Program-made: the position numbers and the translations under genes
Shown here: in pieces, positions 26,341 to 62,508 of the stretch
How the letters are laid out: each line of letters opens with the position of its first letter
How positions within the stretch are numbered: position 1 is the stretch's first letter
The notes under the pieces: model-generated
What the model was told of the DNA's origin: nothing
The model's database searches: none
The model's input: only the letters and a program-made list of their open reading frames with translations
Assembly (NCBI GenBank): GCA_020724525.1
Contig: DYGU01000006.1
Location: forward strand, 13,210-77,209
Source of the DNA: Dehalococcoides mccartyi
GTDB taxonomy: Bacteria > Chloroflexota > Dehalococcoidia > GIF9 > DYGU01
DNA length: 64,000 bases
Direction: 5' to 3'

Positions 26341-26737
26341 GAGCCTTGTGGGCGAAGAATCTCTATAATTGAATTCCACGACGAAGATAGACTAATACCA
26401 CCTGAAAATTGTATTATAAATTTTGGGTCACTTGAAAACGGAGTTTTATACAGAATCAAAAGGGTTAGTTTAAAAATGTCGTCGCGAGGCTAAAGCCTCG
26501 CCCGAAGCGACCCTAAAGGGTTGCGCTACAAAAACTTGGGGGTGAAAGGCGTTTAGGGTGCTTAAAAATAAACCTGAAATCAAGATTAAACAACCCGCAG
26601 ATATTAAGGGGATTAGCTCCAACTCAGCTAACCCCCTTGGTAGGTTATTCTCCTAATATTTCAAGAAGCACCCTTTTTGCGCAGGGCTTGGCGCCGAGCT
26701 GATAACTTTGCCAGTTTCTGCTTGATAGAGTCTTCCA

Positions 26738-27343
26738 TTATTTGGTGGAACTCACCTCAGCCAGGGCATAATGAGGAGGAAGTATCCCTGTAGGACATAG
26801 AGAGAAGCACTCCCTACACCCAGTGCATTCCTTGCGGGCAATTTTGGGGAAAAACACTACCTCCCGTTGTGTTCCTCTTCCAATGAAACCAATAGCGTGC
26901 TTCTTCTTTATCTCAGCGCAGTAACGCACACATAACCCGCAAAGAATGCAGAAAGTTGGCTCCGTCTCAAACCTTGTTTTTATTTCATATCCTATTACAA
27001 ATTCCCTAATTGTTCGGACGCCAGTTATATCATACCTCATCCCGTACTCCCTTAAGGGTGCGATTCCAGGAGCACGAGCCCACATTAGCTCTAAAAGTAT
27101 CTTACGAATCTTGCTTAATCGATTAGTTTCTGTCTTTACTACAAGCCCATCTTCAGCTGGATAACAGTAAGAAGCTACTAATCGGGAGTGTTGTTCCCGA
27201 ACTATTTCCACAGTGCACAATCGGCACGCACCATAGGGAGCCAATTTTTCATGATGGCAGAGGGTAGGAATGTCAATTCCAACAGTTCGTGCTGCCTCAA
27301 GAAGAGTCATCCCTTCCTTAGCTTTGACTTTTTTTCCTGTCAA
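26738..27343 (-). CDS. 2Fe-2S plus multi-4Fe-4S ferredoxin-domain protein (NuoG/HndC N-terminal-module-like, no catalytic domain)
   Basis: 201 aa. It carries the Cys cluster C-x10-C-x2-C (2Fe-2S), a HxxxC..C His-ligated 4Fe-4S, and the CILCGLCVRYC and CTGCRECFSLCP ferredoxin motifs. It is the last gene of the NuoE/NuoF-like operon. Confidence 0.7.
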   Translation of the reverse strand: MTGKKVKAKEGMTLLEAARTVGIDIPTLCHHEKLAPYGACRLCTVEIVREQHSRLVASYCYPAEDGLVVKTETNRLSKIRKILLELMWARAPGIAPLREYGMRYDITGVRTIREFVIGYEIKTRFETEPTFCILCGLCVRYCAEIKKKHAIGFIGRGTQREVVFFPKIARKECTGCRECFSLCPTGILPPHYALAEVSSTK

Positions 27344-27369
27344 TAATTAAATTGATTGTGCTCATTTTT

Positions 27370-29290
27370 CTACCCTCGCTTTCGTATTACTTGTGTGCCT
27401 AATGGAACTGGCTCAGGTATTTTTGTACTTGGAAGCTTAACTACGGCACCAAAGCGGGGAGGACAAACTTCAAGGCAGGTACCACAGTTGGTACATTTAT
27501 TCTGGTCTATAATATGGACTAAGCTCTTACCACCATTAATAGCCTCCACTGGACAGTCCCGGAAGCAAATAAGGCAAGCCTGGCACTGGCTGGGTTCAAT
27601 ATAGTAGGCTATCAACCCTTTACAAACGCCAGCTGGACAATACTTTTCTCTTATGTGTGCTTCATACTCGTCTCTAAAGTATTTAATTGAAGTCAGCACA
27701 GGATTAGCGGCTGTAGTCCCTAAAGCGCAAAGGGAAGCGTCGGTGAGCACCTCGGCAATCTCTTCCAGTAAACCAATATCTTCTTCTTTCCCTTCTCCCC
27801 GGCGAATCCTATCTAAAACTTTGAGCATCTGGTATATTCCTTCCCGACAGGGGACACACTTACCACAAGACTCCTCGGTAAGAAAATTTAAGAAGTAACG
27901 TGCCGTATCCACCATGCAAGTGTCCTCATCCATTACTATCATCCCACCAGAACCCGTCATGGAGCCGAGTTTGGAGAGTTCATCAAAGTCAACCGGGGTA
28001 TCCAGGAATTGTTCTGGGATTACTCCACCGGAAGGTCCACCTGTTTGAACTGCTTTAAACTTTTTGCCTTCACGAATTCCGCCACCGATTTTGTAAATGA
28101 TATCTCTCAGGGTTATCCCCATCGGCACTTCTACAAGTCCGGTATTATTTACTTTGCCTACAAGTGAGAATATCTTTGTTCCTTTACTTCCCTCGGTGCC
28201 AAGGGACCTAAACCAATCAGCACCGTTGTTAATAATCAGCGGGACATTTGCCCAGGTTTCCACATTATTGAGGTTGGAAGGCTTTTCCCAAATTCCCTTG
28301 ACTTGCAGTGCGGATGTATTTTGGTCTCGGCTCGCCTACTTTTCCTTCTATCGCTGTCATGAGTGCGCTTGATTCACCAGAGACAAAGGCTCCAGCACCC
28401 CGATGAATAGTGACCTTAAAGTTAAAGCCGGAGCCGAGAATATCTTCTCCTAAAAACCCATATTCTTCAGCTTGCTTTAGGGCAATTTCTAAGTTTTCCA
28501 CAGCCAGAGGATACTCTTGCCGCACATAAACGAATCCCTGGTGCGAACCAATAGCATAAGCTCCGATGATTAAGCCCTCAAGCACACTGTGTGGGTTTTC
28601 CTCCATAAGGCCCCGATCCATATAAGCACCAGGGTCTCCTTCATCACAGTTAACAATAACATATTTAGGTTCTCCTGGAGCCTTGCGGCAGGTTTTCCAT
28701 TTCCTTCCGGCAGGGAACCCTCCGCCACCTCTACCCCTAAGGTCCGCCCTGTCCACTTCGGCTAAAACCTCCTCCGGGGTCATCTCAAAGAGGGCTTTGG
28801 TTAATGCCCGATATCCTCCAAGAGCAATGTAGTCCTCTATACTCTTCGGATTAAGTTTAGAATTATTAGCAAAAATAATCTGGGTCTGATATTTATAAAA
28901 GGGGATTTCGTGTTTATAAACTATCTTTTCGCCCGTGGTAGGGTCAATATAAAGCAGTCTGTCACTAACCTCCTCTTTAGCTGTCCTGTCCACGATTTCT
29001 GGTATATCCTCTGGTTTCACATTGCAGTAACCTGTCCCTTTGGGGGAAACTACGACTATCGGTTCTTTTTCACAAAATCCATGGCAGCCAGTGCTCCTAA
29101 AATCTATCTTTTACTCCAAGCCTTTCTTTGTGAGTTCTTCTATAAAAGCAGCGGCAACTTCCTGGCTCCCATAGGCAAGGCAACCAGTGCCACTACAGAG
29201 GGAAATGCAAAGTTTGTTCGGGTCCCTTTTTAATAAAATATCCTTTCTAAATTCTTCAAGCTCTTTTGGTGATGAAAACCGCTTAGTCAC
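27370..29290 (-). pseudogene. NuoF/HymB-like NAD(P)H-binding 51-kDa-type subunit, interrupted by an in-frame TAA and a +1 frameshift
   Basis: Hand translation from GTG 29290 gives a thioredoxin-like 2Fe-2S domain (CISLCSGTGCLAYGS ... TGCHGFCEKEP). An in-frame TAA splits it at 29111..29113. The FMN/NADH domain follows (GRGGGGFPAGRKWK). The reading frame then shifts by +1 near 28285..28300: ...[12 protein letters not shown] is in one frame and [18 protein letters not shown] in the next. It continues to the [10 protein letters not shown] and [12 protein letters not shown] Fe-S motifs. The track shows this as two ORFs, 28265..29020 and 27370..28263. Confidence 0.7.
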
Positions 29291-29767
29291 TTATTCCTCC
29301 TGACCATAGCTTTGGAGAATCTCTCCTACTTTGGAAACCGAGAGTTTGCCGTGATACTTCCTACCCACCACCATCACCGGTCCCAAAGCACAACAACCAA
29401 GACAATTGACGCTTTTCAAACTGAATTTCAGGTCCGGTGTTGTACCACCTGGAGATATGCCAAGAAATTGCTGGGCTCGTTCCAGTATATGCGGCGAACC
29501 ACGAACATGACACGCGGTACCCAAGCAGACAGTAACTTGATGGCGCCCTCGTGGTATCAGGCTAAAAGCTTTGTAGAAGGTAGCTATATGATAAATTTGG
29601 GTCAGAGGAACACTAAGCCTCTCGCTGAAGTGTATTAGAGCATCTTTAGACAACCACCGGTTTTCTCGTTGAACATGGAGGAGCACTTGAATTAGGAACG
29701 CCTTGTCAGCTCCATATTTATTTATAATTTCATCAATTTTGGTAAGCTCTAACACCATTTCCATCAC
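29291..29767 (-). CDS. NuoE/HymA-like thioredoxin-fold 2Fe-2S subunit (24-kDa-type)
   Basis: 158 aa with the CLGTACHVRG...CLGCCALGP Cys pattern of NuoE. It sits directly upstream of the nuoF-like gene. Confidence 0.85.
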   Translation of the reverse strand: MMEMVLELTKIDEIINKYGADKAFLIQVLLHVQRENRWLSKDALIHFSERLSVPLTQIYHIATFYKAFSLIPRGRHQVTVCLGTACHVRGSPHILERAQQFLGISPGGTTPDLKFSLKSVNCLGCCALGPVMVVGRKYHGKLSVSKVGEILQSYGQEE

Positions 29768-29779
29768 CTCTTTAGCTCT

Positions 29780-30766
29780 TTAAAACCCTTTCTGTCCAGT
29801 AACTCCACCACCAGCTTTGCCCCTTTTTTTGGCTAAAGCCTCATGTCTGGCAACTAACTTGGCTTGGCGTTTAGCTAACTTCACCCAAAAAGCATCTTCC
29901 ATCGTTTGACCGAATTCGCAGTTGGCACAGTGGAAAGCTCGGGAGCAGAGACGGTAAGAGATGTCACCTTTAAGAGCATAGCGGCAAAGTCTCTGGTTTC
30001 CGGGCAATGCCTTTAGCCTTTCTAAGGCAGCGGCAATTTCTGGTGACTCACCGGCAGTCTGCATCTGCTGGTCAAATTCGCAGGTAAGACAATCGTAATC
30101 CTTAGTGCATACCCGGTAAGAAACAACACCCATCTTCATCCAGACGCAGGGCTTAGCGACTTCCGTAGCCGTTACTTCAATTGCTGGTGCTGCCGCTTCT
30201 GTTTTTGCCTTCCGGATCCAGACCCTCGCCGCCAGGTTACCTGGTGCCATCTCCAGTATCCTCTCAAATTCCGCTATTGCTGCCGAATAGTCCCCCTCCT
30301 TGAAGAAGTCCTGACCTAAGGACAGGTACGTGGCAATCTCCTCTTCCAGTTTGCTCACTTCATCTTTCTTCTCCTCCATAATCACTTCTGGGGCAGCCAT
30401 TGGCTTAGCTTCAAGGACTTCCCTGATTAGTTGCTCCAGAGACTCAGGGGCAAATGGTTTAACCAGATAATCTATAGCTCCAGCTTTGGCGGCTTCTACC
30501 GCTGTTTCCACAGACGGATAAGCAGTAATAATGATTGCCTTTAAGGTTGGAATTTGCTCTTTAGCTTCCTTTAAGACCTGGATACCGTCTTTGCCAGGAA
30601 GTTTAAGGTCAAGGACGGCAACACCGCACTCCTGTTTTTTAATTATTTCCAGAGCCTGTTCTCCATCCTCAACAGCAACCACTTCCTGCCCCTCACTCGT
30701 TAGCCAGTCTCTTAATGACTCCCTGACGATGGTTTCATCTTCCACTAACAAAATGGGTTTTGTCAT
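29780..30766 (-). CDS. response regulator: REC domain + helical/TPR-like linker + tandem C-x5-C-x2-C Cys-rich output domain
   Basis: The N-terminal REC has the phospho-acceptor context (VLDLKLPGKDG). The C-terminal half contains two repeats: YRVCTKDYDCLTCEFDQQMQ and YRLCSRAFHCANCEFGQTMED. There is no HTH. It is the first gene of the operon with the nuoE/nuoF-like genes, downstream of a sigma-54-type promoter. Confidence 0.7.
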   Translation of the reverse strand: MTKPILLVEDETIVRESLRDWLTSEGQEVVAVEDGEQALEIIKKQECGVAVLDLKLPGKDGIQVLKEAKEQIPTLKAIIITAYPSVETAVEAAKAGAIDYLVKPFAPESLEQLIREVLEAKPMAAPEVIMEEKKDEVSKLEEEIATYLSLGQDFFKEGDYSAAIAEFERILEMAPGNLAARVWIRKAKTEAAAPAIEVTATEVAKPCVWMKMGVVSYRVCTKDYDCLTCEFDQQMQTAGESPEIAAALERLKALPGNQRLCRYALKGDISYRLCSRAFHCANCEFGQTMEDAFWVKLAKRQAKLVARHEALAKKRGKAGGGVTGQKGF

Positions 30767-30805
30767 TTCTATTACCTCCTCCTTTTTGTCTTCACCTTGA
30801 ATAGT

Positions 30806-30821
30806 CGCAATTTTCGTGCCA
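30806..30821 (-). promoter_or_regulatory. candidate sigma-54 (-24/-12) promoter TGGCAC-N5-TTGC
   Basis: The minus strand reads TTGGCACGAAAATTGCG. It has GG at -24, GC at -12 and an exact 5-nt spacer. The Cys-rich response regulator start codon lies ~40 nt downstream. rpoN and an NtrC-type activator are encoded immediately upstream. Confidence 0.5.
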
Positions 30822-30825
30822 AAAC

Positions 30826-30860
30826 AAGAAACTACCCTGATAACTTCAGGGTAGTTTCTT
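30826..30860 (-). terminator. perfect 15-bp inverted repeat (terminator of the NtrC-type gene and/or activator binding site)
   Basis: aagaaactaccctga-taact-tcagggtagtttctt. On the minus strand it is followed by GTTTT, which runs into the -24 element. Confidence 0.45.
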
Positions 30861-30924
30861 GTTTGTGTCGATTCGCTTTTATGGCTGATGAAGACTACAT
30901 CATAAGTATAAAGAAATTAAACAG

Positions 30925-32286
30925 TCATTTGTCTATTTTATTTACAACAAGGTCATGTGTTTTTACCTTGTTATAGAGGGTCATTCGAGTGATGCCTAAT
31001 ATTTTTGCCGCCTGGCTCAGGTTTCCTTTAGTTTGTCTAAGTACACTCAGGATGTGGCTCTTTTCCAATTCTTTGAGGCTCTTGTCACTGCTCACAGGAG
31101 CTAAAGGTAGATTTTGGTAAGCCAGGTCAGCTAAAGTTACCAGGCTATCTTTAGCTAAAATAACAGCTCTTTCAATGGCATTTTCCAATTCTCGGACATT
31201 GCCCGGCCAGTGGTATTTCAGAAGGAATTCTTTAGCTTCGGGGGCAAAGCCAGCTATTTCTTTTTGATTTTCCAGAGAGAACTTTTTTAGAAAGTGCTCC
31301 GCCAGAAGGGGAATATCTTCCCTTCTTTCTCTTAAAGGTGGTAAATCTATAGTTACCACATTCAGCCGATAATAAAGGTCTTCTCGGAATTGACCTTGCG
31401 CCACCGCTTTTTTCAAGTCTTTGTTAGTAGCTGAGATAATACGCACATTTACTTTTATAGGCTCATTGCCACCCACCCGAGTGAATTCTTTTTCCTCAGT
31501 GACTCTCAGTAAATGAACCTGGGTGTTAGGGCTTATGTCTCCTATTTCGTCGAGAAACAAAGTGCCCTTATTAGCATATTCAAACTTACCCTTTTTTTGG
31601 GCAATAGCACCAGTGAAAGAACCTTTTTCGTGCCCAAAAAGCTCACTTCCTAAAAGAGTCTCTGAAAGAGCGGCACAGCTTATGGCAACAAAAGGCTTGT
31701 CCTTGCGGGGACTCAAATTATGGACCGCTCGAGCAATAAGTTCCTTACCACTGCCGCTTTCTCCAGTAATCAAGACAGTAGCGTTGCTCTTAGCTATTAC
31801 CTTCACCATTTCAAAAATTTGTTGCATTCGATTACTTTTGGCGATGATATTTTCAAAACGATAGCGGTCTTCCAGTTTCTGGCGCAAGGAGATATTTTCC
31901 TTTATTAGCTTCTGGTGCTCCACCAATTTTTTGATGACCAATTCTACTCTCTCGGGACAGAAAGGCTTCTCAATATAGTCGTAAGCACCCTCTTTGATAG
32001 CAGCAATAGCTGTAGCTATACTGCCATAAGCGGTAATGATAATTATTGGAATATCAGGTGAGAGTTCCTTTACTCTTTTGGTTAACTCGATTCCGTCCAT
32101 CCCCGGCATTACCAAGTCAGCAATAATAATGTCTGGAGTTTCTCTTTGAGCCAGTTGTAAGGCTTCACTCCCATTAGAAGCCGTGGAGACGCTGTAGCCG
32201 ATGTCTTTCAGCCACTCCCAGAGGGACTCGCGGATACTGGCTTCGTCATCAACGATTAAAATCCTGGCTGTTTCCTTCAATGGCAA
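30925..32286 (-). CDS. sigma-54-dependent transcriptional response regulator (NtrC family: REC + AAA+ + Fis-type HTH)
   Basis: 453 aa. The REC domain has DDEASIRESL...D. The AAA+ domain has Walker A GESGSGKE, the GAFTGA-type motif GSFTGA, and an ESELFGHEKG loop. The C-terminal HTH is QAAKILGITRMTLYNKVK. Confidence 0.85.
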   Translation of the reverse strand: MPLKETARILIVDDEASIRESLWEWLKDIGYSVSTASNGSEALQLAQRETPDIIIADLVMPGMDGIELTKRVKELSPDIPIIIITAYGSIATAIAAIKEGAYDYIEKPFCPERVELVIKKLVEHQKLIKENISLRQKLEDRYRFENIIAKSNRMQQIFEMVKVIAKSNATVLITGESGSGKELIARAVHNLSPRKDKPFVAISCAALSETLLGSELFGHEKGSFTGAIAQKKGKFEYANKGTLFLDEIGDISPNTQVHLLRVTEEKEFTRVGGNEPIKVNVRIISATNKDLKKAVAQGQFREDLYYRLNVVTIDLPPLRERREDIPLLAEHFLKKFSLENQKEIAGFAPEAKEFLLKYHWPGNVRELENAIERAVILAKDSLVTLADLAYQNLPLAPVSSDKSLKELEKSHILSVLRQTKGNLSQAAKILGITRMTLYNKVKTHDLVVNKIDK

Positions 32287-34238
32287 GCCTCCAGATAAAC
32301 AGTGAAAGTGGTTCCCTTACCTACCTCGCTATCAACCTTGATTCTACCCTTGTGCCTTTGGATAATGCCATGCACTACTGCCAGCCCCAAGCCAACCCCT
32401 TTCTCCCTCTCTTTGGTAGTGAAAAAAGGAGTGAACAATCGGCGCCTATTTTCTTTAGGGATACCACAGCCAGTGTCGGCTACATCTACTTTAACCCACT
32501 CTTGCTTCTTGCCACCGACTCCCTCTTCAGATATTATCTCTGTCTGCAAGGTTAATCTCCCCCCTTGAGGCATAGCCTGGACAGCATTAAGGATGAGATT
32601 GGTAAAAACCTGACAGAGCTGGTCAAAATCAGCCGTGACCAGACAGCCCTCACCACGGAATTTCTTAACTATTTCCACATTTTGCAATTGAGCTTGATGG
32701 CTGACCAAAGACAAAGCTTGGTCAATAACTTGGTTAGCATCAACTACTTTCAATCTTGGCTCAGACTGTCGGGCAAAATCGAGCAGATTTCGAATTATTC
32801 CGGAACTGCGGCTGACTTCAGCTTCTATTTTTGATAGATAACTCAAGGCTTCTTCTTTAGGTAATCCATCACCACCTAATCTTTTAGACAGGAGTCGGGC
32901 ATAAACTAAAACCCCAGTTAAGGGATTATTTAGTTCGTGAGCAATAGCTGCGGCTAATTGTCCCAGAGAAGTTAATTTTTCCGCCTGAATAAGCTGTTCC
33001 TGAGTTGCCTTTAGGCGCTTGACGACAAAGGGCCAGCACATTTCATTCTCGGCTAAGCCGCGGTAGATAGCAATAGCTTTTTCCCGGCAGGTTTTATAGC
33101 CGCAGGCACCACAGTTGAGTTCATCCTCGGGCTTGGTCTTGTCGGTCAAACTCAAAACACCTCGGATTTCTTCTTCAGTGGGGTAGGGGAGGGAGATATA
33201 GCGATTGGTAAACCGTCGCCTTAAATTTAGATCGCCATATCTTATTAAGTCTTTTTCCGTCTGCTCTGGGTCGGTTTCTTTCAAGGTGTATTCAGTAATA
33301 ATTTGTTTTTTCTTAAAATAATTTAATTCGCTTCTAATTGACGGACCGCTGACACAACCTTCACACATAAAAAGCTCAGCGAAGTTAACTCTAATGTCCC
33401 CTTTGTCAATCTCGTGAATAATTTCCAGCACCCTTTCGGCACCTTCCCCCACTACAGCCTCTTTATCCAAAGGATCGGTGGAAACTCCGATTGCTTTACA
33501 AAATCCACCAGAAATAGCACATAATCGCCCCAAATTTGGTTTGGGACCGAAAAAGGGAGTCTCCCCTAAACTGGCCGGGTCGATAGCTTTTTGGGCAAGA
33601 AGTTCTTCAAGTTCATCAAAGGTTAAAACAGCGTCAATTACACCACCTACCTTCTCATCATCCCGCTCTGCCCTCTTGGCAACACTGGGGGCGATAAAGA
33701 CCACCTTTGTCTCAGGTGGGTAGTATTTCTTAATCAACCTACCCATAGCAATCATGGGGGGCACAATAGGCGCTAAGTTATCAATTAACTGGGGGTAATA
33801 TTTCTCAATATAATAGACTACAGCCGGACATTGAGCGCTAATAATTGGTTTTTGCTTGCTTGTCTTTATTAGTTTTCGGTATTCCTGAATAATGAGGTCA
33901 GCACCAAAGGCTCCTTCTACTACTTGGTTGAACCCCAGTTCTAAGAGAGCAGTTACCAGTTGCCTTGGGCGGATTTCGGGAAAGGCTACCGGGAAGGAAT
34001 AATCAAGGCAAGCGATAGGTGCCGGGGATTTACTCAGTAAAACCCTTGTCGCTCCGATATCGCTTTCTATTTGCTTGGCTTTCTGGCTACAGACTCGGAC
34101 ACAGTTACCACAAGCAATACACCGTTCCTTCATCACTTCAGCCAAGCCCTCTTCCACTTTAATGGCATTAGCTGGACAGCTACGGATACAAGCATAGCAA
34201 CCCTTGCAATTGTCTTTATTAGTGAAGATGACCGCCAT
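32277..34238 (-). CDS. sensor histidine kinase with N-terminal 2x[4Fe-4S] ferredoxin + degenerate [FeFe]-hydrogenase H-cluster-like domain (HydS-like sensory module)
   Basis: 653 aa. The N-terminus has CKGCYACIRSCP and CIACGNCVRVC ferredoxin motifs. A ~300 aa region follows with hydrogenase-like L1/L2/L3 remnants (SAQCPAVV, IAPSVAKRAE with Cys replaced by Ser, ELFMCEGCVSGP). HisKA (AAAIAHELNNPLT) and HATPase_c (GCGIPKENRRRLFTPFFTTK...GLGL) domains follow. It overlaps the NtrC-type gene by 10 nt. Confidence 0.8.
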   Translation of the reverse strand: MAVIFTNKDNCKGCYACIRSCPANAIKVEEGLAEVMKERCIACGNCVRVCSQKAKQIESDIGATRVLLSKSPAPIACLDYSFPVAFPEIRPRQLVTALLELGFNQVVEGAFGADLIIQEYRKLIKTSKQKPIISAQCPAVVYYIEKYYPQLIDNLAPIVPPMIAMGRLIKKYYPPETKVVFIAPSVAKRAERDDEKVGGVIDAVLTFDELEELLAQKAIDPASLGETPFFGPKPNLGRLCAISGGFCKAIGVSTDPLDKEAVVGEGAERVLEIIHEIDKGDIRVNFAELFMCEGCVSGPSIRSELNYFKKKQIITEYTLKETDPEQTEKDLIRYGDLNLRRRFTNRYISLPYPTEEEIRGVLSLTDKTKPEDELNCGACGYKTCREKAIAIYRGLAENEMCWPFVVKRLKATQEQLIQAEKLTSLGQLAAAIAHELNNPLTGVLVYARLLSKRLGGDGLPKEEALSYLSKIEAEVSRSSGIIRNLLDFARQSEPRLKVVDANQVIDQALSLVSHQAQLQNVEIVKKFRGEGCLVTADFDQLCQVFTNLILNAVQAMPQGGRLTLQTEIISEEGVGGKKQEWVKVDVADTGCGIPKENRRRLFTPFFTTKEREKGVGLGLAVVHGIIQRHKGRIKVDSEVGKGTTFTVYLEACH

Positions 34239-34266
34239 TTTCGCTAACCTTTCTAAAGTTATTAAA

Positions 34267-34340
34267 GAGAGTGTTTATTTTGTCACCCTCACCTTATTCC
34301 TCTCCCTTCAAGGGAGAGGGTAGGTGAGCGTTTCTCCACT
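34267..34340 (-). repeat. intergenic repeat family A copy (reverse orientation, truncated)
   Basis: gagagtgtttattttgtcaccctcaccttattcctctcccttcaagggagagggtaggtgagcg is the reverse complement of the hairpin core of the 20024 and 20766 copies. It lies between rpoN and the kinase gene. Confidence 0.65.
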
Positions 34341-34345
34341 TAAGA

Positions 34346-35443
34346 TTATTTATTTGTCATTGCCAAGAGTCTCCTTTGTCGTGAGGATGGGATTTTTAGC
34401 TCTTTCCTGAGACTGGCTATAGTACGTCGGGACAGATATACGCCAAATTTCCTCTCCAGACTAACCTTTATTTTCTGGTCACTAAGAGGTTTTGCCTCTT
34501 GTTCAAGAATTTGCTTGAGCAACTCCTTTCGGAACTTCTTAGGGTTTGGGAAAAAGTCTTTAAGTGCTCTTTCGCCCCAGGGAGTTTCAAGACTTTTATT
34601 AGCGATAACTCGGCTGATAGTGCTTGGGGTTAAGCCAATTTTGGATGCCAGTTCCTTTTGACTGAAAGGCAACAACGCTTTTGGGTTGCCCGATTCAAAA
34701 AATGGAGTTTGCTTTTCAACAATGTTCTGTATTACCTGGTGTAAACTATTTTTCCGGCTATTTATTAACTCTAACTTTCGTAAGAGCTGCCTTATCTCTT
34801 TGACTTCGGTATTGTTGAAAACTCCGTCGTGGAGTAACTGTTCCAGCTTCATATAATCAACAACAAATTTACCTCGGGCATAAGCTGGGGAGAAGTAAGC
34901 AACAGATAACCCCTCAGTTCCCCTTTCTATTGCGGCAACTTTGGAATAATGTTTTCCTTTGTCTGAGATAGAAGAAGGGTGGTAGAACTCGGTGGCAATG
35001 GAAAATTCGTCAATAAGACTGTTTATTTTAGACACTTCTGAAACTTCCAGCTGACACTGGTGGGCAATTTCCTCAACAGTAATCCCGGGCTCCGGGTATA
35101 AGAAATATTGTTTGAAATTGTCTATACCCAGATTTCTGATTAGACCAACCAGTTCCTCTTTATTGGCGATCAAAGATTCCACATCAACCGAGCTTGGGGC
35201 GGCGACAATTTCCTCTTTAAGTTCATAAAAACGGCGAGAAAGATTGGCTTTTGGGAATCGTTGATAGTGAATTACCTTCTCTTGTTCCCGGAGGCGCTTA
35301 AATAGTGAGCTCTTTTCTACCCCAAAAATTAAATACTGGAACTCCACTTCCGACATTTCCAGCAAATTGGCCTGCTCTATTCGGAGAAAAAGTTTGAGTT
35401 CTTGTCTTGTTTCCAGAGATTGGGTTATGTTTGGATTTACCAC
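34346..35443 (-). CDS. rpoN: RNA polymerase sigma-54 factor (short form)
   Basis: 365 aa. The C-terminal RpoN box (YLSRRTIASLRKELKIPSSRQRR) and the HTH (ASKIGLTPSTISRVIANKS) are present. The Leu/Gln-rich N-terminal region I is short. The protein is shorter than typical RpoN (450-500 aa). Confidence 0.8.
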   Translation of the reverse strand: MVNPNITQSLETRQELKLFLRIEQANLLEMSEVEFQYLIFGVEKSSLFKRLREQEKVIHYQRFPKANLSRRFYELKEEIVAAPSSVDVESLIANKEELVGLIRNLGIDNFKQYFLYPEPGITVEEIAHQCQLEVSEVSKINSLIDEFSIATEFYHPSSISDKGKHYSKVAAIERGTEGLSVAYFSPAYARGKFVVDYMKLEQLLHDGVFNNTEVKEIRQLLRKLELINSRKNSLHQVIQNIVEKQTPFFESGNPKALLPFSQKELASKIGLTPSTISRVIANKSLETPWGERALKDFFPNPKKFRKELLKQILEQEAKPLSDQKIKVSLERKFGVYLSRRTIASLRKELKIPSSRQRRLLAMTNK

Positions 35444-35514: not shown

Positions 35515-35817
35515 CTATCCCCTCTGCAAGGATCGAGCTATCATCTCCTGACCTTCCTGGAGCCTTGTAAATCCTTCCTTGAGGTGCCTGGCTATTGACT
35601 GTTGCCCCTCACTAATCTCTTTTAGCCCGTCCATAAGCACTTTCTGTCCTTCCCTAATCTCTCTTAGCCCGTCCATAAGCGCTCTTTGCCCGTCAACAAG
35701 CGCTTTTTGCCCGTCCATAAGCAACCTCATATTGCGTCCATTTGCTCTCCAGATATAAGCAAGGATTACACCGAGAAAAGCCAGGGCTGCTCCTATCATT
35801 CCTGTGGCTATTTCCAT
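35515..35817 (-). CDS. small single-pass membrane protein with coiled-coil repeats (paralog 3 of 4)
   Basis: 100 aa with the TM helix MIGAALAFLGVILAYIW. It carries LMDGQ-type decapeptide repeats (LLMDGQKALVDGQRALMDGLREIREGQKVLMDGLKEISEGQQ). Confidence 0.5.
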   Translation of the reverse strand: MEIATGMIGAALAFLGVILAYIWRANGRNMRLLMDGQKALVDGQRALMDGLREIREGQKVLMDGLKEISEGQQSIARHLKEGFTRLQEGQEMIARSLQRG

Positions 35818-36006: not shown

Positions 36007-36408
36007 TTAACCCTTTAAAGGACCAAGGGCTCTCACCTTTTCCGTCATTTCATTTACGACAGAGACAAAGCGGTCACCTTCTGAAGCTGACACCCAGTCC
36101 AATCTCAGTCTTTCCTCTTCAATCCCCATCTGGACTAACATTTTCTTTAGTAATGGTATACGCCGTATAGTCTTATAATTACCTTCGGTATAATGACAAT
36201 CTCCGGGGTGACAACCAAGAGCCAAAACTCCATTAGCACCCAACTAGAAAGCCTTAAGGATAAAGGTAAGCTCCACTCTGCCACTACACATTACTCTTAT
36301 TGTTCTGACATTATGGGCACACTTCATCCTGGCTGTCCCAGCCAGGTCTGCTCCCCGGTAGGAACACCAGTTACACAGGGAACCGATAATCTTAGGTTTA
36401 AAGCTCAT
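36007..36408 (-). pseudogene. MvhD-like hydrogenase/heterodisulfide-reductase-associated Fe-S subunit with an in-frame TAG
   Basis: Hand translation from ATG 36408 gives [54 protein letters not shown]. An in-frame TAG (36244..36246) follows. It then continues LGANGVLALGCHPGDCHYTEGNYKTIRR..., which is the MvhD signature. The track shows only the distal 78 aa. Confidence 0.65.
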
Positions 36409-36431
36409 ACTAATACCCCCCTATTCTAATT

Positions 36432-36790
36432 CCTAAATCTTTTCAATATATGACCTCAGGTCACCCAGATACCCCTCCATTTCGTCGAAGCTTAAAGTGC
36501 CATCGTAGTAACCTTGTATGTGAAAGACATCTCTGAGAAATAAATAATGCCATCTAAGCTCTCTGTCAGCATATTTGAAAACCAAGTATCTTCTCCCCCT
36601 ATCGCCTGAGGTAGCTGCTCTTCTTTGATTCCCTTCTTAATCAAAAGACTATGAGTAGCTTCTATGGTGGAGAACCAACTTTTGGCACAAGCATCCCTTA
36701 AAAGTGTGCCGTCATTTTTCTGTCTTGCCCTGTCAAACTCCTCAAATGCCTTTTCGTAGAGCCTTCTTGCTTCTTTCAGATGATTTTCTG
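36432..36790 (-). pseudogene. small helical (HEPN-like?) gene remnant with a frameshift and no canonical start
   Basis: The minus strand reads ...LSSENHLKEARRLYEKAFEEFDRARQKNDGTLLRDACAKSWFSTIEATHSLLIKKGIKEEQLPQAIGG. It then continues in the +1 frame (RRYLVFKYADRELRWHYLFLRDVFHIQGYYDGTLSFDEMEGYLGDLRSYIEKI). A strong AAGGAGAT Shine-Dalgarno-like sequence lies upstream but no ATG/GTG/TTG start follows. The family assignment is uncertain. Confidence 0.3.
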
Positions 36791-36793
36791 AAC

Positions 36794-37933
36794 TCAGATT
36801 ATCTCCTTAACATCTTTAATTTCAATAACATCAGCTTTATCCATAGTAAGCACGCTGTCATCAAAATTGAGGATACAGTAAGGGTAGGCTGTGGCTAAAA
36901 CTTCAGCTCCAACATCTATTGCCTGCTCTAACCTTATGTCCGAAAATCTTTCACCTTTTTTGGTTTCCTGCCAGATTCTGCCGCCACCACCACAGCAAAG
37001 GCTATTTTCTCGGCTATCCGGCATTTCCAGAAAATCCAGACCTAGAATGCTCTGTAGCAATTGCCGCGGGGTGTCGTATATATTGTTATGCCGCCCTAAG
37101 TAGCACGGGTCATGATAAGCTACCTTTTTCTTAATTTCCTTCCTAAACTTTAATCTTCCTTCTTCAAGTAGTTGCCTCAGGTACTGAGTGTAATGAAGGG
37201 TCTCAAAATTACTGCCAAGCTTAGGGTATTCATTTTTGAAGGTATGATAGCAATGGGGAAAGCTAACCACGACTGTCTTCATACCTTTTCCCCTAAAAGT
37301 AACGATGTTGCTCCTGGCTAACTTCTCAAAAAGCTCTTCATTCCCAGCTTTCCTAACGCTTTCGCCACAGCAGAGCTCTTCCGAGCCTAAAATACCAAAA
37401 TCTACCTCGGCTTTCTTAAAGATGTTAGCTAAAGAATGAGACATTCTTTTTACCTTAGGGTCATAAGCAGACACACAGCACGAAAAATATAAAAGCTCCT
37501 TATCTGGAGAAAACCTTTCTACACCCAAATCTTTCGCCCAATCGGCTCGCCTTTCGGCGGCTTCTCCCATAGGATTGCCCACAGCAGAGATATTTTCCAT
37601 AGTAAGTCTCAGTGAATCAGGCACATAACCTACCCCAAATCCTACTGGAATTCTACGCACAGCCCTCATGACATCTATTATCTCCACCCCTCGGGGACAC
37701 CGTTCAACACAAGCCCGACAGGTGACACAGAGCCACCAGATTTCGTCTTCAAAGTTAACCAGCCCTAATTATGTCTGACGCACCATCCGGCGAACAATGA
37801 AACTTCTCACCTGATTCCAGGGACAAATCCCACTACAGAGACCACATTGATAACACAGTTTAAAAGCTTCACCACCGGCTTCTTTTATGAAATCCAGAGT
37901 TTCTCGAGATGGGCTTACTGCCTGTACAGCCAT
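36794..37933 (-). pseudogene. HdrD/GlcF-like Fe-S oxidoreductase (4Fe-4S ferredoxin + two CCG domains) with an in-frame TAA
   Basis: Hand translation from ATG 37933 gives MAVQAVSPSRETLDFIKEAGGEAFKLCYQCGLCSGICPWNQVRSFIVRRMVRQT. An in-frame TAA (37769..37771) follows, then LGLVNFEDEIWWLCVTCRACVERCPRGVEIIDVMRAVRR... The 297 aa track ORF follows, carrying CCG motifs (FSCCVSAYDPKV, LCCGES, HDPCYLGRHN, LCCGGGG). Confidence 0.65.
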
Positions 37934-41770: not shown

Positions 41771-42524
41771 TTAAATAGTTACCTTGAGTCCGAATAAGTC
41801 TACAGCATTTTTAGTAGTCTGCTGGCTAACAGAAGCTTCGTCAGCTCCCTTTATGGCAGCCACAGCGGTCAAAGTCCTCACAATATTAGCGGGCTGGGAG
41901 GAATACTTTGTCTCCCTACCACAAACAACGGGACAATCTGATTCCGGAAGTAGCCTGTTTAAGGGTACTTCTTTAATGGCTCGGCGGTGCTCCTGGTGGT
42001 ACTCTGCTGCTGGAGTAGCCGAAATAAAGTAGCCAGTGCTGAGAATGTCTTTGAGAACACTGGAGAAGCCGGTAAACCAGTGGAAAACAGCTTTTTCCAC
42101 CCTTGTCTGAGCAGTTACTTCATAGGCGTCCTGCCACGCGTAACGACTATGGATTATCACCGGTTTTTGATAAAGTTTAGCTAAGGTAAGGAGACGGTGA
42201 AAGACTTCCTTCTGGGGTTCTTTAGGGGTGGTTTTAATTACTCTTTTATCATAGTCCAGACCAATTTCACCGATAGCCACAATGTCAAAAATCTTGACTT
42301 CAATAAAGTGGAGATTAGCCTCAATTTAGGAAGGGGTGAAGACCTAAGGAAGGGTAAACAAATTCGGGATAGCTCTGGCAGATTTCCAGGGTTTTCAGAT
42401 TTGACGAGTAATCCGAGCCAACAGCAATAATAGCCACCACACCTATCTCCTTAGCTCTGTCCACAGCTGAAGACAGATTTTCCAGCTCATCCAGGTGAGT
42501 ATGAGTGTCGATAAGGCAATACAA
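41771..42524 (-). pseudogene. tatD: TatD-family metal-dependent hydrolase split by a -1 frameshift
   Basis: The N-terminal part (LYCLIDTHTHLD...LGLHPF) starts at a TTG preceded by AAAGGAAAT. It ends at a TGA. The +1 frame continues IEANLHFIEVKIFDIVAIGEIGLDY... to 41771. The break is at ~42285..42330. The track shows two ORFs, 42321..42581 and 41771..42280. Confidence 0.65.
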
Positions 42525-42614
42525 ATTATTTCCTTTAGGAACCAATGTGCCCGAAGATAGTCTGGCAGATAACGGTCTCAAGCCCCGTTTCTTTCAGAAT
42601 CTGGTGAACCATTT

Positions 42615-45129: not shown

Positions 45130-45149
45130 AAGATTTGCCTCCCCAAATA

Positions 45150-45560: not shown

Positions 45561-45869
45561 AAGTCTAATTTTTTTCTGGTAGCTGGTGTAATGGACAGGC
45601 TGGTCAGTCTGGAGGGGGAGAGGTGGCAAGGGGGAAAAGAAGTGGCTCGGAGTGTCCTGGGGCGTTAAGGAGGGAGTTGAATTTGAGTAAGCAGCAATTG
45701 CCGGTGGAAGAAGTCGGTTTCATTGAGGGTAAAGTGATGGAAGCTTCAGGGGAAATGGAGTTGCGGAATTATGACGAAGCGAGGGAGAGATTAGCTGAGG
45801 CTCTATCTCGTATTACTACCCTCAGTGATAGATATATGCAGACGCTGAGAGAAAATGGCTGGATTTAAC

Positions 45870-46523
45870 CTCTTGGCAATATAACCTTTAATGTCTTCAG
45901 GCTTTATCATACCCAGTTCGGTGATTCTTCCGGTTATGAGCTGGGGTGGGATTTGGTCAAAGCCGGGTTCTAATTCGGGGGATTTACCCTGGTAGCTCTG
46001 AGTATTTAGTTTAGCTGTTTCACAGAGGCAGTAGACAGGGATGGAAGCCCTTCTGGCGGCTGAGGCGAGGATATAAGTGGGGATGCCGTTAATAATAGAG
46101 CCATCACTGAGGATGCTATCGGCACCAACCAGGACTCTGGTTGTTTGAAGATATGTTTTCCTATATAGTTATCTTCGATGAGTTCAGAGCTGATAGTGTG
46201 CCGGACTAATTCTTCAGTAGTTAATTTGCCGTAGACTATGCCTTGGGAGACCTGGACTGGGCAACAATAACCTGGAATTCTTTACCTTCCTGTTTGGCTA
46301 TCTAGAGAGCCTGGCAGACGGGGGAACTGTAGCTGCAGGTCATTAGAATGTCGGATGGCTGGACAATGCTGGCACCGTGTTGAGCTACTTTCAGATGAGC
46401 TTCTGTTGATGAGTTAATAATCTCTTTGCCTTTAGTCTGGGCGAAGACTTTCAGGGAATTAAGGTCAGGCGACTCTTGGGAATAGGTGATAGCCTTGATT
46501 CTTGTGGTGATTTTGTGGTTCAT
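45870..46523 (-). pseudogene. eIF-2B alpha/beta/delta-family (MtnA/R15P-isomerase paralog) pseudogene, N-terminally truncated with an in-frame TAG and two frameshifts
   Basis: Hand translation gives ...ILMTCSYSSPVCQAL, then a TAG, then IAKQEGKEFQVIVAQSRSPKA. A frame change follows (QGIVYGKLTTEELVRHTISSELIEDNYIGKHIF). Another frame change follows (VLVGADSILSDGSIINGIPTYILASAARRASIPVYCLCETAKL...ITELGMIKPEDI). All conserved eIF-2B-family blocks are present but they fall in three frames. Confidence 0.6.
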
Positions 46524-46530
46524 AAGGTGG

Positions 46531-47526
46531 CTAAATGTGAAATTCGATAATGTCACCGTCCTGGAGGATATGGTCTCTTTTAGCTCTTTGTCCGTCAAAC
46601 TTGCCTGAGCCCCAGACAAGGGCATATTTTAATTTAGCTTTGAAATCCTTATGAATAGCCTCAGCGGCATCTTCAACAACACTGTCTTTCTTTAGAACTA
46701 TGGGCTCGGTTAAGTCTGGTTTCCCGCCGGGGGTTTTAGTATAGACGCGGATAATGTCCAAGGCTTTGTAGACCTCTCTTTTAAACTCTTCCAAGCCAGC
46801 ACCATTTTGGGCAGCAATAGGGATGAGGGGGAATTGCTTCTGATAACGCTCGGTCAGTTTCGTCCAGTTCCGGCTGGAATTGTCCAGGTCGCTTTTATTA
46901 CCTACAATTACGGCTTTTTTCCAGTATCTCACTTGAGACTCGCCATCCTCACTGCCGATAAGCCCTATGCCGAGTTTTCTTAGTTCTCGGGTGACAACTT
47001 CCACCTGAGTAATAGGCTCGAGGCTTAAGTCTATCAGAATAGCGAGAAGGTCAGCATTTCTAAGGAGGTTGGTGAGCCATAAAGGCGGTCCTCGGTCGGT
47101 GATGGGTGGGGTATCAACGAGCTGTATTTGAATATTTTCAAAGTCCATCATTCCGGGATTAGGCATCTTGGTGGTAAAGGGATAGTCAGCTATTTCTGGA
47201 GAGGCTTCGGTGACCGCTGCCAGAAGCTGGGACTTTCCCACATTTGGTAAGCCAATAATTACTATCTGCCCGGCGCCTTCCTTCTTGATATGGTGGATAC
47301 CCCGTCTGCCCGGGGCAGCCTTTTTTTCGGCTTCTTCAGAGAATTTGGCAATTTTTCGCCTGAGTTCGGCACGGAGTTTGTCGGTGCCTTTGTGTTTGGG
47401 CATGATGGCCAGCATTGCCTCTAAGGCTTCGATTTTTTCCTCAGGACTTTTGGCGATTCGGAAGCGCTTTTCGGCTTCAAAATATTGTGGTGGTAGATTT
47501 GCTGGCATAGGTAAATATTTTAGCAC
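46531..47526 (-). CDS. Obg-related GTPase of the DRG/Rbg type with C-terminal TGS domain
   Basis: 331 aa with G1 [11 protein letters not shown]3 DTPP and G4 NKSD. A C-terminal TGS-like segment is present. Confidence 0.75.
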
Positions 47527-55693: not shown

Positions 55694-56265
55694 TGACTGA
55701 ACAGTTATTCTCTAAAAAGGTTACTTTTGTTCTCGGTGGGGCTCGCAGTGGCAAAAGTTATTTTGCCCAAAAGTTAGCCAGGAAACTGGGAAAAAAGGTG
55801 CTCTTTGTGGCTACCGCTGAGCCTCTGGATAAAGAGATGCAAGCCCGTATTGAGGAGCATAAGAAGTTGCGTCCTTCTTACTGGCGAACCCTTGAAATAG
55901 CCAGTGGCATAGCCGGGGAAATAGAGACTCAGTCTGGCGATGCCGAAGTAGTGGTTGTGGACTGCCTGACTCTGCTTGTTTCCAATATCGTGACCAAAAA
56001 CTCTGACTATAACCAGGCAGAAAAACGGGTGATAGCCGAAATTAATGAGCTCATTAACTGCCTGGACAGACTCAATGCCAGCTTTATTATTGTTTCCAAT
56101 GAAGTGGGGCTGGGCATAGTGCCCGAAAACGAGCTGGCACGCTTTTACCGCGACCTCTTAGGTAAAGTCAACCAGCTTATCAGCCAGAAAGCCGATGAAG
56201 TCTATTTCATGGTTGCCGGCATTCCACTGAAAATAAAAGGGGAGCCCTCACCAACCAAAAGTTGA
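55684..56265 (+). CDS. cobU: bifunctional adenosylcobinamide kinase / adenosylcobinamide-phosphate guanylyltransferase
   Basis: 193 aa. The P-loop GGARSGKS and the CobU family length are present. Confidence 0.85.
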   Translation: MAIMTEQLFSKKVTFVLGGARSGKSYFAQKLARKLGKKVLFVATAEPLDKEMQARIEEHKKLRPSYWRTLEIASGIAGEIETQSGDAEVVVVDCLTLLVSNIVTKNSDYNQAEKRVIAEINELINCLDRLNASFIIVSNEVGLGIVPENELARFYRDLLGKVNQLISQKADEVYFMVAGIPLKIKGEPSPTKS

Positions 56266-56289
56266 CAGTTACCTTCCTGGGCCTATAAT

Positions 56290-56441
56290 CACCCCTCTGC
56301 CTTTCGTAAATACAGTCTGTCTCTTCAATGAACCACTGCCGACCGACCTTTGTTCCTTTAATTCGACCTTTCCTGAGTAATCGCTGAAGCCATTGTTTGA
56401 CTTATCCCAAATCTTTTGGCTGCCTCTTTAGCGGTTATCAT
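56290..56441 (-). pseudogene. excisionase/HTH_17-family DNA-binding gene remnant with a 1-nt frameshift
   Basis: The minus strand reads ATG MITAKEAAKRFGISQT. The next frame continues WLQRLLRKGRIKGTKVGRQWFIEETDCIYERQRG. This is the typical excisionase motif (..VKEAA..LGVS..TIYRL...G.I...K.GR.W.I). Confidence 0.4.
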
Positions 56442-56548: not shown

Positions 56549-56833
56549 TTAAGGTTGAGCTTTAAGGACTTGCCTTGTCTTTTCTGATTCTGAGACAACT
56601 AGCTGGGCCAGGTATTTTATAGCCTCAGCCATTTCTTTTCTTGCCTCACTCTGTCCTTGTTCTATTCTAATGAGTATTTCTCTTAGCTCTTTTCTTGTCT
56701 CGATATGTCCCTCTTCCATTCTGGTGAGAATTTTTCTTGTGTTTCTTCCATTTATTATGGCATAAACTGTAATGAATGCACCTAAAATGGTTGACATAGT
56801 CCCGGCTAAAGCCAATAGTTCCCAGAGACTCAT
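56549..56833 (-). CDS. small single-pass membrane protein with coiled-coil repeats (paralog 4 of 4)
   Basis: 94 aa with the TM helix LWELLALAGTMSTILGAFITVYAII. The helical repeats are TRMEEGHIETRKELREILIRIEQGQSEARKEMAEAIKYL. A bidirectional hairpin, agccaaccttaatcaggttggct, lies downstream. Confidence 0.5.
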   Translation of the reverse strand: MSLWELLALAGTMSTILGAFITVYAIINGRNTRKILTRMEEGHIETRKELREILIRIEQGQSEARKEMAEAIKYLAQLVVSESEKTRQVLKAQP

Positions 56834-57159
56834 CTCACACCTCCATTTCCGTTTCCTGCTTCTATCAACCCTTATATCTTTTTAATCTGCTACCTCCAGT
56901 TTAGGAAACTGAATAGGGGCTGTCAAGGCAGTAGCTTTAATAAATTTGTCTACGCACGTTCTCAGGCTCCTTTTGGGCTGAAGTATATTGACTTTAGTAA
57001 TACTCGGTCTTCCCATGGGTAAAAAGGGCATAGATTAAAAAGCTTAATTTGAGGTCTAGCCTTATAAGTTCCCTTAAAGTCAACGCCTGCTTCAACAGGG
57101 CTTGACTTTTTCACTGGTTCTGCTATACTAACCACAAAATAAAATAAATTGTTTAGGTT

Positions 57160-57312
57160 GAGGTGCCCGAGGGCAATCGAGGGCTTAATGGGAAAGCAAG
57201 CTGGTGGAATTCCGGCGCAGTCCCGCTTGCTGTAACAGCCAGAACGCCTGCCTCAACAACAATAACCACCTCCGCGGAGTCAGGGGGCAGGGTTTTTTAG
57301 TTAGCTTCTAAA
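57160..57312 (+). promoter_or_regulatory. cobalamin (B12) riboswitch
   Basis: ggttgaggtgcccgagggcaatcgagggcttaatgggaaagcaagctggtggaattccggcgcagtcccgcttgctgtaacagccagaacgcctgcctcaac has a closed P1 stem (ggttgagg...cctcaac). The AATGGGAA, GGTGGAATTCC and GCAGTCCCGC motifs are present. The B12 box AGCCAGAACGCCTGCC is present. Confidence 0.8.
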
Positions 57313-61540: not shown

Positions 61541-61689
61541 GAATAGCATTATTACCGGTCTTGAGCGCTTTCTCACCGACCTGTATAAAGTCCATTCTGG
61601 TAAAGAGGCTGAACCCCGTCAGGCTATTGATGACTTTTATCTCAGTAAAAAGCATATAGACTGTGCCTCAGAACTGGAAGCTCGCTATT

Positions 61690-61800
61690 TGAAGGTGTGG
61701 CTTATAGACTGCTGAAAAAGTCCTTCGGACATTTTTCAGCAGCTTTTGATCTGCCCCAATGGGGAAAAGAGGGTTACCCGCTGAAAAACGCAGTTTTTCA
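61690..61800. terminator. two strong hairpins (bidirectional terminator region)
   Basis: ctgctgaaaaagtccttcggacatttttcagcag is followed by cttttg. ccgctgaaaaacGCAgtttttcagcgg is a perfect 12-bp stem. Confidence 0.45.
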
Positions 61801-61814
61801 GCGGTCTCCTTAAT

Positions 61815-62162
61815 TCAATACTTTGTCTCTTTATTGAGAATTTCTTCAATTTGTGGTATGAGTTCTGGCAATTCTTGTTTAACTTGCCAGATAACATCAT
61901 ATTTAATGCCAAAATAGTGGTGGATTAGTTTATCCCGTAATCCGGCAAGTTCCTTCCACGGAATTTGTGGATATTTCTTTTTTCAATTGGCAGATATGCT
62001 TTTTGTAGCCTCTCCCACAACTTCAAGGTTTCGAATCATAGCATCTTGAGTTTTTCTGTCTTGCATAAACCCCTCATAAGTTAATCCCTCAGTGTAAATA
62101 ATTATTCTCTCTATAGCCTCTTTAATGTCACCAAGGTAGTCTTTGTCTCTTCTTTTAGACAT
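61815..62162 (-). pseudogene. hepT: HepT/DUF86 HEPN-family toxin with an in-frame TGA
   Basis: Hand translation gives MSKRRDKDYLGDIKEAIERIIIYTEGLTYEGFMQDRKTQDAMIRNLEVVGEATKSISAN. A TGA follows at 61983..61985. It then reads KKKYPQIPWKELAGLRDKLIHHYFGIKYDVIWQVKQELPELIPQIEEILNKETKY. This is collinear with the intact paralog at 62627..62974. The ATGTCTAA overlap with the upstream MNT gene is typical. Confidence 0.6.
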
Positions 62163-62508
62163 AAATCAAACTCTTTTTGATATCCTCGGCAATATGCTTA
62201 TATCTTGGATTGCTAAAACTTCTTTCCAAGCACTCAAAGGTGGCAACATCCACTTTTCTGCCCAGTGATTCTTCAAGGTAATATGCCAGTTTTACAAATC
62301 CAAGACCTAAAGGTTTTTTGAGTTCTATAAGAATGTCTATATCACTTCTTCCCCTTTGTAAACCCCTGGCAAAGGAGCCGAAGATACATATTCTTTCTAC
62401 TCCATATTCATCCCTTAAATAGGGGAGCTCTTTCCTGAGAGCTTCGATAACACTTTCTTTTGTAAGTATTCTTTTCATAGCTACCATTATCCCCAACCTT
62501 AAAACCAT
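62155..62508 (-). CDS. mntA: MNT-type minimal nucleotidyltransferase antitoxin
   Basis: 117 aa. The ICIFGSFARGLQRGRSDIDILIE motif matches GS..RG....SD.D. Confidence 0.75.
   Translation of the reverse strand: MVLRLGIMVAMKRILTKESVIEALRKELPYLRDEYGVERICIFGSFARGLQRGRSDIDILIELKKPLGLGFVKLAYYLEESLGRKVDVATFECLERSFSNPRYKHIAEDIKKSLIYV

Follow-up and report, generated by a model that had tools for sequence, protein, structure and literature searches.

Are the broken genes scattered along this stretch of a Dehalococcoidia genome true pseudogenes and, if so, why do they lie where they do? The 64-kb stretch analysed here (the window) is bacterial, and its nearest named relatives are Dehalococcoidia or Chloroflexota metagenome-assembled genomes. 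A first-pass annotation had listed seven disrupted genes in it; all seven lesions could be read at the nucleotide level in the sequence, and an eighth disrupted gene, absent from that list, was found. From the comparisons described below, we consider it very probable that the genes are true pseudogenes and that the lesions are fixed in the natural population, a nearly clonal one, of an uncultured member of the class Dehalococcoidia. The genes had been listed singly, but three of them (nuoF, mvhD and hdrD) belong to one functional module; their lesions would not be independent, and together appear to be the wreck of a single hydrogen and electron-bifurcation gene set. Our examination covered ~84 kb of one contig, comprising the window and its flanks.

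Remains of a hydrogen and electron-bifurcation gene set

The Mvh-Hdr part of this set is an operon that in contig L021 reads hdrD-hdrA-mvhD-mvhG-mvhA-hycI (L-numbers denote assembled contigs, of the lineage itself or of a relative, and P-numbers homologous proteins; L018 is GCA_034414595.1). Contigs L021, L022 and L023 all carry hdrD-hdrA-mvhD-mvhG; mvhA follows in L021 and L022 and hycI in L021, and L023 ends within mvhG. Two of these genes are left in the window, in the relatives' order and orientation, and both are interrupted. The hdrD-like gene, an HdrC/HdrB fusion with CCG domains (36794..37933, minus strand), has an in-frame TAA at 37769-37771 (ACA TAA TTA). When repaired, its product of 379 amino acids (aa) can be aligned over its whole length with intact homologues (381-385 aa; up to 82% identity); it is closest to L019 and L020 (82%) and 72% identical to L021, L022 and L023, and in all five contigs hdrD is followed directly by hdrA. 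The mvhD relic (36007..36408, minus strand) is split into 54-aa and 78-aa parts by an in-frame TAG at 36244-36246 (TTC TAG TTG); once repaired, it matches the Pfam family FlpD over positions 1-123 of 123 in one stretch and is 82% identical to the mvhD of L021.

Between the two relics, where the relatives have an hdrA of ~2 kb, lies a spacer of 385 bp (36409..36793, minus strand) without hdrA similarity. It holds a small open reading frame (ORF) that needs a frameshift to be read through, and its match to DUF5618 scores 22 bits, below the cut-off of 33. Searches with tblastn, blastn and tblastx gave no match to hdrA, mvhG, mvhA or hycI anywhere in the 64-kb window; in the spacer and the surroundings of mvhD, searched to E<=5, only noise was returned. 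Compared with the MvhADG-HdrABC operons (group 3c [NiFe]) of L021 and L018, orthology is clear for the hdrD-like gene, with its CCG domains and 4Fe-4S (72% identity), and for mvhD, of the FlpD family (82%), and the two genes have kept their order and orientation. However, neither hdrA nor mvhG, mvhA and the gene for the maturation protease is there, and each of the two remaining genes is interrupted by a stop, so that what is left is a relic. Contigs L019 and L020 have an intact hdrD, with a downstream hdrA that is frameshifted near codon 30 and truncated after ~70 codons (L019 2045-2290; L020 1309-1553, with one extra indel), and the two contigs break off at an identical position. The operon seems here to be caught midway in its decay.

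The third member of the set is a nuoF-like gene of the HndC/HydB type (27370..29290, minus strand), with a TAA at 29111-29113 (GAG TAA AAG) and a surplus A at 28303 (ACT GCA A GTC, against ACT GCG GTC in L018). The repaired protein (639 aa) is 79% identical to the intact 642-aa P0012 and aligns end to end with intact homologues of 636-645 aa, some of which are named HndC by JGI. Its neighbours are intact: a nuoE-like thioredoxin-like [2Fe-2S] subunit (29291..29767, minus strand; Pfam 2Fe-2S_thioredx 1-144 of 145; 72% identical to the L018 orthologue) and a nuoG-N-terminal-like 2Fe-2S/4Fe-4S protein (26738..27343, minus strand; Pfam Fer2_4 and Fer4_7). L018 has an intact nuoE, nuoF (642 aa) and nuoG-like gene (209 aa) beside an hdr/mvh cluster and the same four regulators as the window. 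The 201-aa nuoG-like gene was also considered as a truncated hydrogenase catalytic subunit and rejected as such: the L018 orthologue, to which it is 67% identical over residues 8-209 of the latter, is itself only 209 aa long, and the short length of the window gene is therefore native.

The four regulators, assigned with Pfam, occupy 29780..35443 (minus strand) and are all intact: a response regulator, a sigma-54 activator, an [FeFe]-hydrogenase-like sensor histidine kinase and an RpoN-like protein. Their L018 orthologues are of equal or similar length, with the sensor kinase near the nuoEFG-like genes but in a different orientation. The sensor kinase itself (32277-34238, 653 aa) has an Fe_hyd_lg_C domain fused to HisKA and HATPase_c and is flanked by the RpoN-like protein and the sigma-54 activator. 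We take it to be a putative sensory [FeFe]-hydrogenase-like histidine kinase, presumably of group C in HydDB. A search for it in the genome contigs gave one true relative, on a 5.9-kb contig. In its domains and its adjacent sigma-54 activator it resembles the known sensory [FeFe]-hydrogenase-like kinases, but differs in that the presumed regulators here are intact beside structural genes that appear dead. The same holds for the NuoEFG-like module as a whole, in which, as judged from the reading frames, nuoF appears to be dead with nuoE, the nuoG-like gene and all the regulators still intact. The module shares with the bifurcating NuoE/NuoF-like modules of HndABCD and HydABC a nuoE-like subunit, a nuoF-like subunit with an N-terminal thioredoxin-like 2Fe-2S and a C-terminal 2x[4Fe-4S] region, and a NuoG-N-terminal-like protein; it differs from them in having no H-cluster catalytic subunit next to it, whether in the window or in L018, and in that the window nuoF is inactivated.

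The remaining lesions fall in typically dispensable genes. A 316-aa gene of unknown family (18078..19027, minus strand), adjoining a DNA methyltransferase gene, is the eighth case: it has lost one base near 18485 and is split into ORFs of 187 aa (18464-19027) and 115 aa (18078-18425). The longer ORF spans only the first ~182 residues of homologues of 279-316 aa, and the repaired model gives a gap-free alignment to the 316-aa P0252 at 71% identity. In tatD (41771..42581, minus strand) there is one surplus base at ~42324-42326, in CCTAAATTG; the frame is restored on skipping one base near 42325, and the repaired model matches TatD_DNase over positions 1-253 of 253 in one stretch. An eIF-2B-family paralogue (e2b2 or ribose-1,5-bisphosphate-isomerase-like; 45869..46589, minus strand) has a TAG at 46302-46304 and changes of frame near 46243 and 46148, so that tblastn returns three segments in three frames (46589-46242, 46245-46150 and 46147-45869). 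It lacks ~48 N-terminal residues relative to homologues of ~296 aa, and the repaired model matches the IF-2B profile over positions 27-224 of 280. An excisionase-type HTH_17 gene (56207..56441, minus strand) has a surplus A at 56396, in CAAACAA, and gives a profile match of 2-42 of 51 when repaired (E=2.9e-11). Finally, a hepT toxin gene (61815..62162, minus strand) is interrupted by a TGA at 61983-61985; repaired, it covers the HepT-like profile completely (1-120 of 120), and its partner nucleotidyltransferase gene (62155-62508) is intact. One metagenomic hepT homologue (L044) has an in-frame stop of its own, two codons upstream of the position mutated in the window.

The Pfam matches and end-to-end alignments of the repaired models place homology to an intact family on both sides of the lesions; for the nuoF-like and hdrD-like proteins, the intact homologues of like length number in the hundreds. 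Could the fragments then be translated separately and still assemble, as functional split genes? Gene callers do give the fragments as separate ORFs, and a potential start codon follows several lesions, such as the TTG after the TAG in mvhD, from which the C-terminal part could be made. But the stop in nuoF separates two pairs of cysteines, Cys32/Cys37 and Cys69/Cys73, that are invariant in its N-terminal thioredoxin-like domain, and the partners of mvhD and hdrD are absent. Moreover, the 120 best nuoF matches are all unsplit, at 634-661 aa, and the 120 best hdrD matches are 379-418 aa long but for one, the 291-aa fragment from the window itself. We regard split but working genes as very unlikely.

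Distribution and authenticity of the lesions

None of the 32 core or biosynthetic genes in the window is disrupted, against eight of the 42 others (Fisher p=0.0085). Had the 11 small lesions fallen uniformly over coding bases, the probability of their all missing the 26.8 kb of core sequence would be ~0.001. This is the pattern predicted by purifying selection, and the earlier statement that core genes are clean is borne out within the window, where they are uninterrupted with full Pfam profile coverage. Outside it the picture is mixed. In the 10 kb upstream, EF-G and 18 ribosomal-protein genes are intact, and downstream the gene calls give dxs, thyX, folD and fhs their normal lengths, but ~2.7-3.7 kb past the window end (L026 18381-19337) three frameshifts interrupt a gene for a fabK-like enoyl-ACP reductase, which matches TIGR03151 in three stretches (E=9e-68). 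The label 'accessory' given to the damaged genes is likewise loose: the contrast between core and other genes holds, but tatD is a widely conserved family.

A concentration of pseudogenes in dispensable genes is known in prokaryotes, where a survey puts them at 1-5% or more of gene-like sequences (Liu, Harrison, Kunin and Gerstein 2004, PMC522871). The window shares with the landscapes described there the stops and frameshifts in disabled copies, the dispensable, mobile or putatively horizontally acquired functions affected and the sparing of essential genes. It differs in density, with 8 of 74 genes disrupted (~11%) in 64 kb against the 1-5% of the survey, three of the eight lying in one functional module.

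An exact-sequence look-up placed the window sequence also on NCBI contig DYFN01000003.1 (GCA_020725225.1) and on JGI Ga0246236_1000096, and the same sequence is present in QZGF01 / SRR7867194, the BE326 BH2 fracture-fluid metagenome from the Beatrix gold mine (PMC6256629). The same lesions occur in separately assembled contigs from SRR13164376, SRR5011273, SRR5011275, SRR28264341 and SRR28264343, as well as in QZGF01 and JGI 3300029893. The per-run contigs are Logan assemblies, made with a pipeline different from that of the NCBI deposit, and all are 99.9-100% identical to the window. The nuoF lesions are found in L010 (SRR13164376), the mvhD and hdrD splits in L006, L007 and L008, the tatD lesion in L002 and L003, that of the eIF-2B paralogue in L002, that of HTH_17 in L027 and L028 (100% identical over this gene), that of hepT in L027, L028 and L029 (again 100% identical) and that of the 316-aa gene in L032 and L033.

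Function could persist in the population if the consensus were null but intact alleles were reasonably common, as might happen under frequency-dependent loss of function. The datasets do differ at a few single-nucleotide variants (SNVs): L032 has two, and in the QZGF01 contigs there is one in every 1.1-1.6 kb. However, the null allele was found at every lesion in every assembly examined, and no SNV restores a frame or removes a stop; such heterogeneity is extremely unlikely.

Nor do the lesions look like sequencing or assembly errors of one metagenome-assembled genome. The source is indeed a metagenome-assembled contig, and the evidence for the fabK-like lesions is confined to the NCBI and JGI assemblies, which probably have data in common. 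But identical lesions were recovered from at least five runs under another pipeline and from a separately deposited metagenome; five of the lesions are substitutions to stop codons; the four single-base indels inspected at the nucleotide level lie in runs of 2-3 bases rather than in long homopolymers; and ~27 kb of core coding sequence is lesion-free. With the partner genes of the operon deleted as well, the earlier preference for genuine decay over an error-prone assembly is supported, and at the level of assembled contigs the lesions are real. An artefact is barely credible.

Origin of the stops

Whether the stop codons could have arisen by single C-to-T changes from CAA, CAG or CGA had been left unclear. 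Codon alignments place the nuoF TAA opposite CAA (Gln) in L018, the mvhD TAG opposite CAA (Gln) in L021 and the hdrD TAA opposite CAG (Gln) in L019 and L021; the TAG of the eIF-2B paralogue stands opposite Gln in its two closest homologues. The four TAA or TAG (UAR) stops are thus all at Gln of the nearest relatives, which would fit C-to-T at the first codon position as far as codon comparison goes. For mvhD and hdrD a third-position A/G change is needed in addition, synonymous if it came before the stop and neutral if after. Such an origin does not hold for hepT. At the position of the hepT TGA, 50 relatives have Leu (TTG 10, TTA 3, CTT 1), Val, Ile or Thr, and CGA was therefore not its source; the most direct route would be from TTA to TGA. 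With all four UAR stops at Gln, the mutation spectrum would seem to be strongly biased towards C-to-T, in what is a tiny sample; deamination may be the cause.

The divergence of the damaged genes was used to judge when they failed. Synonymous divergence (dS) is saturated in most comparisons, leaving the nonsynonymous divergence (dN) and one value of their ratio, omega, as usable. For hdrD, dN is 0.179 between the window and L021 and 0.174 between L019 and L021, and omega for the window against L019 is ~0.11. For mvhD, dN is 0.199 between the window and L018 and 0.196 between L021 and L018, and for nuoF it is 0.13, the lowest in its neighbourhood. There is no excess of nonsynonymous divergence on the window branch, which therefore points to a mostly constrained history and recent inactivation. 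The eIF-2B paralogue and the fabK-like gene, with at least three lesions each, are probably older.

That the nearest relatives have Gln at each of the four in-frame UAR codons, a coincidence only moderately likely by chance, is also the pattern expected of a UAR-to-Gln reassignment. Under such recoding, TAA and TAG would be read as Gln by a suppressor tRNA or local reassignment, TGA as selenocysteine (Sec) or otherwise, and the frameshifts would be programmed, leaving the genes functional. This is close to negligible, since UAR codons are ordinary terminators here, ending 52 of the 65 ORFs of at least 100 aa in the window (TAA 34, TAG 18, TGA 13), including ribosomal genes matched to the profile end, and in-frame stops occur in none of the 32 core genes, the UAR stops being confined to four genes with other signs of decay: nuoF and the eIF-2B paralogue carry frameshifts too, and hdrA, mvhG and mvhA, which hdrD and mvhD need, are deleted. 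Neither of the marks of a reassignment, UAR codons within core genes or the disuse of UAR as a terminator, was seen, nor was one of selenoprotein recoding; none of the redox genes is stopped by a TGA, their stops being TAA or TAG, and at the hepT TGA the homologues have Leu, Val, Ile or Thr rather than Cys. ARAGORN, run on the window only, found no tRNA gene, and by eye the four frameshift sites inspected at the nucleotide level have neither a slippery heptamer nor a long A/T run. Within that compass, nothing was found by which recoding would rescue the genes.

Several points weigh against reading these genes as fixed pseudogenes. The coincidence of four out of four UAR stops with Gln has a probability of ~0.01 at a 4-fold transition bias and of 0.056 at a 10-fold bias. 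Just beyond the window, the broken fabK-like gene may count against the rule that core genes are clean, which is then not absolute. The density was measured over ~84 kb of one contig, and a second hdrA/mvh copy elsewhere in the genome is possible. The support for the lesions comes from assembled contigs, so that a minority intact allele is possible. Lastly, SRR7867194 / QZGF01 (BE326 BH2) is the one run with a documented origin, and the others may be less than fully independent.

Genomic setting and meaning of the decay

The first 9.4 kb of the window are the end of a ribosomal-protein (spc/alpha) cluster, with the order L18, S5, L30, L15, SecY, Adk, Map, IF-1, L36, S13, S11, S4, RpoA, L17, TruA, L13 and S9 as assigned by Pfam; pgi-like, pgm, metK, ahcY, mtnP, mtnA and ade follow, again by Pfam. 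Two cobalamin riboswitches (48163-48287 and 57144-57269, upstream of btuC and btuF), one of which scores exactly at the Rfam gathering cut-off, precede the nine btu/cob genes found from 48.3 kb onwards.

Small repeated elements also occur. A REP-like palindrome of 58-70 bp with the core CCTCACCTTATCCCTCTCCCTTCAAGGGAGAGGGTAGGTGAGG is found at 20064-20133, 20847-20904 and 34267-34336; the copies share 97% identity, are intergenic and include one in reverse. A second inverted-repeat element (TGTCATTGCGAGCGAAG...CACAAAA) occurs twice, at ~25760-25800 and ~38230-38280, and two independent Logan contigs end at 38237, beside it. A family of 90-116-aa proteins with a hydrophobic N-terminal segment and short repeats such as MDGQRALMDGLREI is encoded at 13267-13539, 25879-26163, 35515-35817, 56549-56833 and L026 19949-20299; one copy past the window is 94.6% identical over 257 bp to 35649-35905, and the family has no Pfam match.

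At 42560-42720 (minus strand), after the ORF at 42615-43157, the 3' end of a Fer4/Fer2_4 ORF reads LDSKVQVCLLDYRPEFRSRIPHPTYSEMKMVHQILKETGLETVICQT in another frame. By eye this resembles a radical-SAM activase C-terminus, perhaps left over from a deletion, but neither Pfam nor NCBIfam bears the resemblance out. Small or unassignable ORFs surround an intact ParE-like toxin and its antitoxin at 43900-45900. There, a 165-aa ORF (44009-44506) has no NCBIfam match, nor has a 65-aa ORF (45150-45347) that by eye is like a methyltransferase C-terminus; a HicB-like remnant at ~45434-45565 (plus strand), similar to the intact HicB at 47636-47848, found no support in the databases. A six-frame Pfam sweep of most of the larger unassigned intervals gave only L36 and the sub-threshold DUF5618.

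If the genes are true pseudogenes, a simple course of events can be proposed. Genes that were no longer needed would gather C-to-T nonsense changes, single-base indels and deletions, whilst purifying selection would keep the translation, S-adenosylmethionine (SAM)-cycle and cobalamin genes intact. Within the hdrD-hdrA-mvhD-mvhG-mvhA-hycI operon, four genes would have been lost outright, leaving two survivors to acquire stops; the loss of one essential subunit would render the rest of the module neutral and free to decay. Relaxed selection may equally account for the lesions in the toxin, the excisionase-type HTH gene, the paralogous isomerase, tatD and the methyltransferase-adjacent gene. This is ordinary bacterial gene decay, a well-known phenomenon, at an unusually high local density; what the locus adds is one dismantled module, the Gln origin of four of the five stops and the recency of inactivation.

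A high density of pseudogenes, with joint decay of entire pathways and point lesions followed by deletions, is also reported for the genome reduction of host-restricted bacteria such as Mycobacterium leprae and M. lepraemurium (PMC6211624, PMC5646247). The present organism differs in coming from fracture water and in not being known as host-associated, and its decay is seen on the one contig examined. BE326 BH2 fracture fluid from the Beatrix mine is at least one source dataset of the sequence, and a bolder account can be framed, which we hold to be doubtful: that a free-living, deep-subsurface clone is undergoing drift-driven erosion at a density like that of host-restricted genomes (~11% locally), shedding its Mvh-Hdr and NuoEFG-like genes and keeping its hydrogen-sensing regulators, with the exclusively C-to-T nonsense spectrum at Gln codons reflecting deamination in very slowly dividing cells and the near-identity of the datasets reflecting extreme clonality or stasis of the population.

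For annotation, the split ORFs of this contig should be labelled as pseudogenes, and metabolic reconstructions should not credit the organism with Mvh-Hdr or NuoF-dependent hydrogen/NADH bifurcation on the strength of matches to hdrD, mvhD or nuoE/G. Across the relatives, the contigs may preserve a staged loss of the operon, from intact in L021, through a frameshifted hdrA in L019 and L020, to the window, with hdrA and the hydrogenase genes deleted and stops in the survivors. If the same were true genome-wide, it would represent drift-driven gene decay in a low-energy subsurface population, outside the usual host-associated setting.

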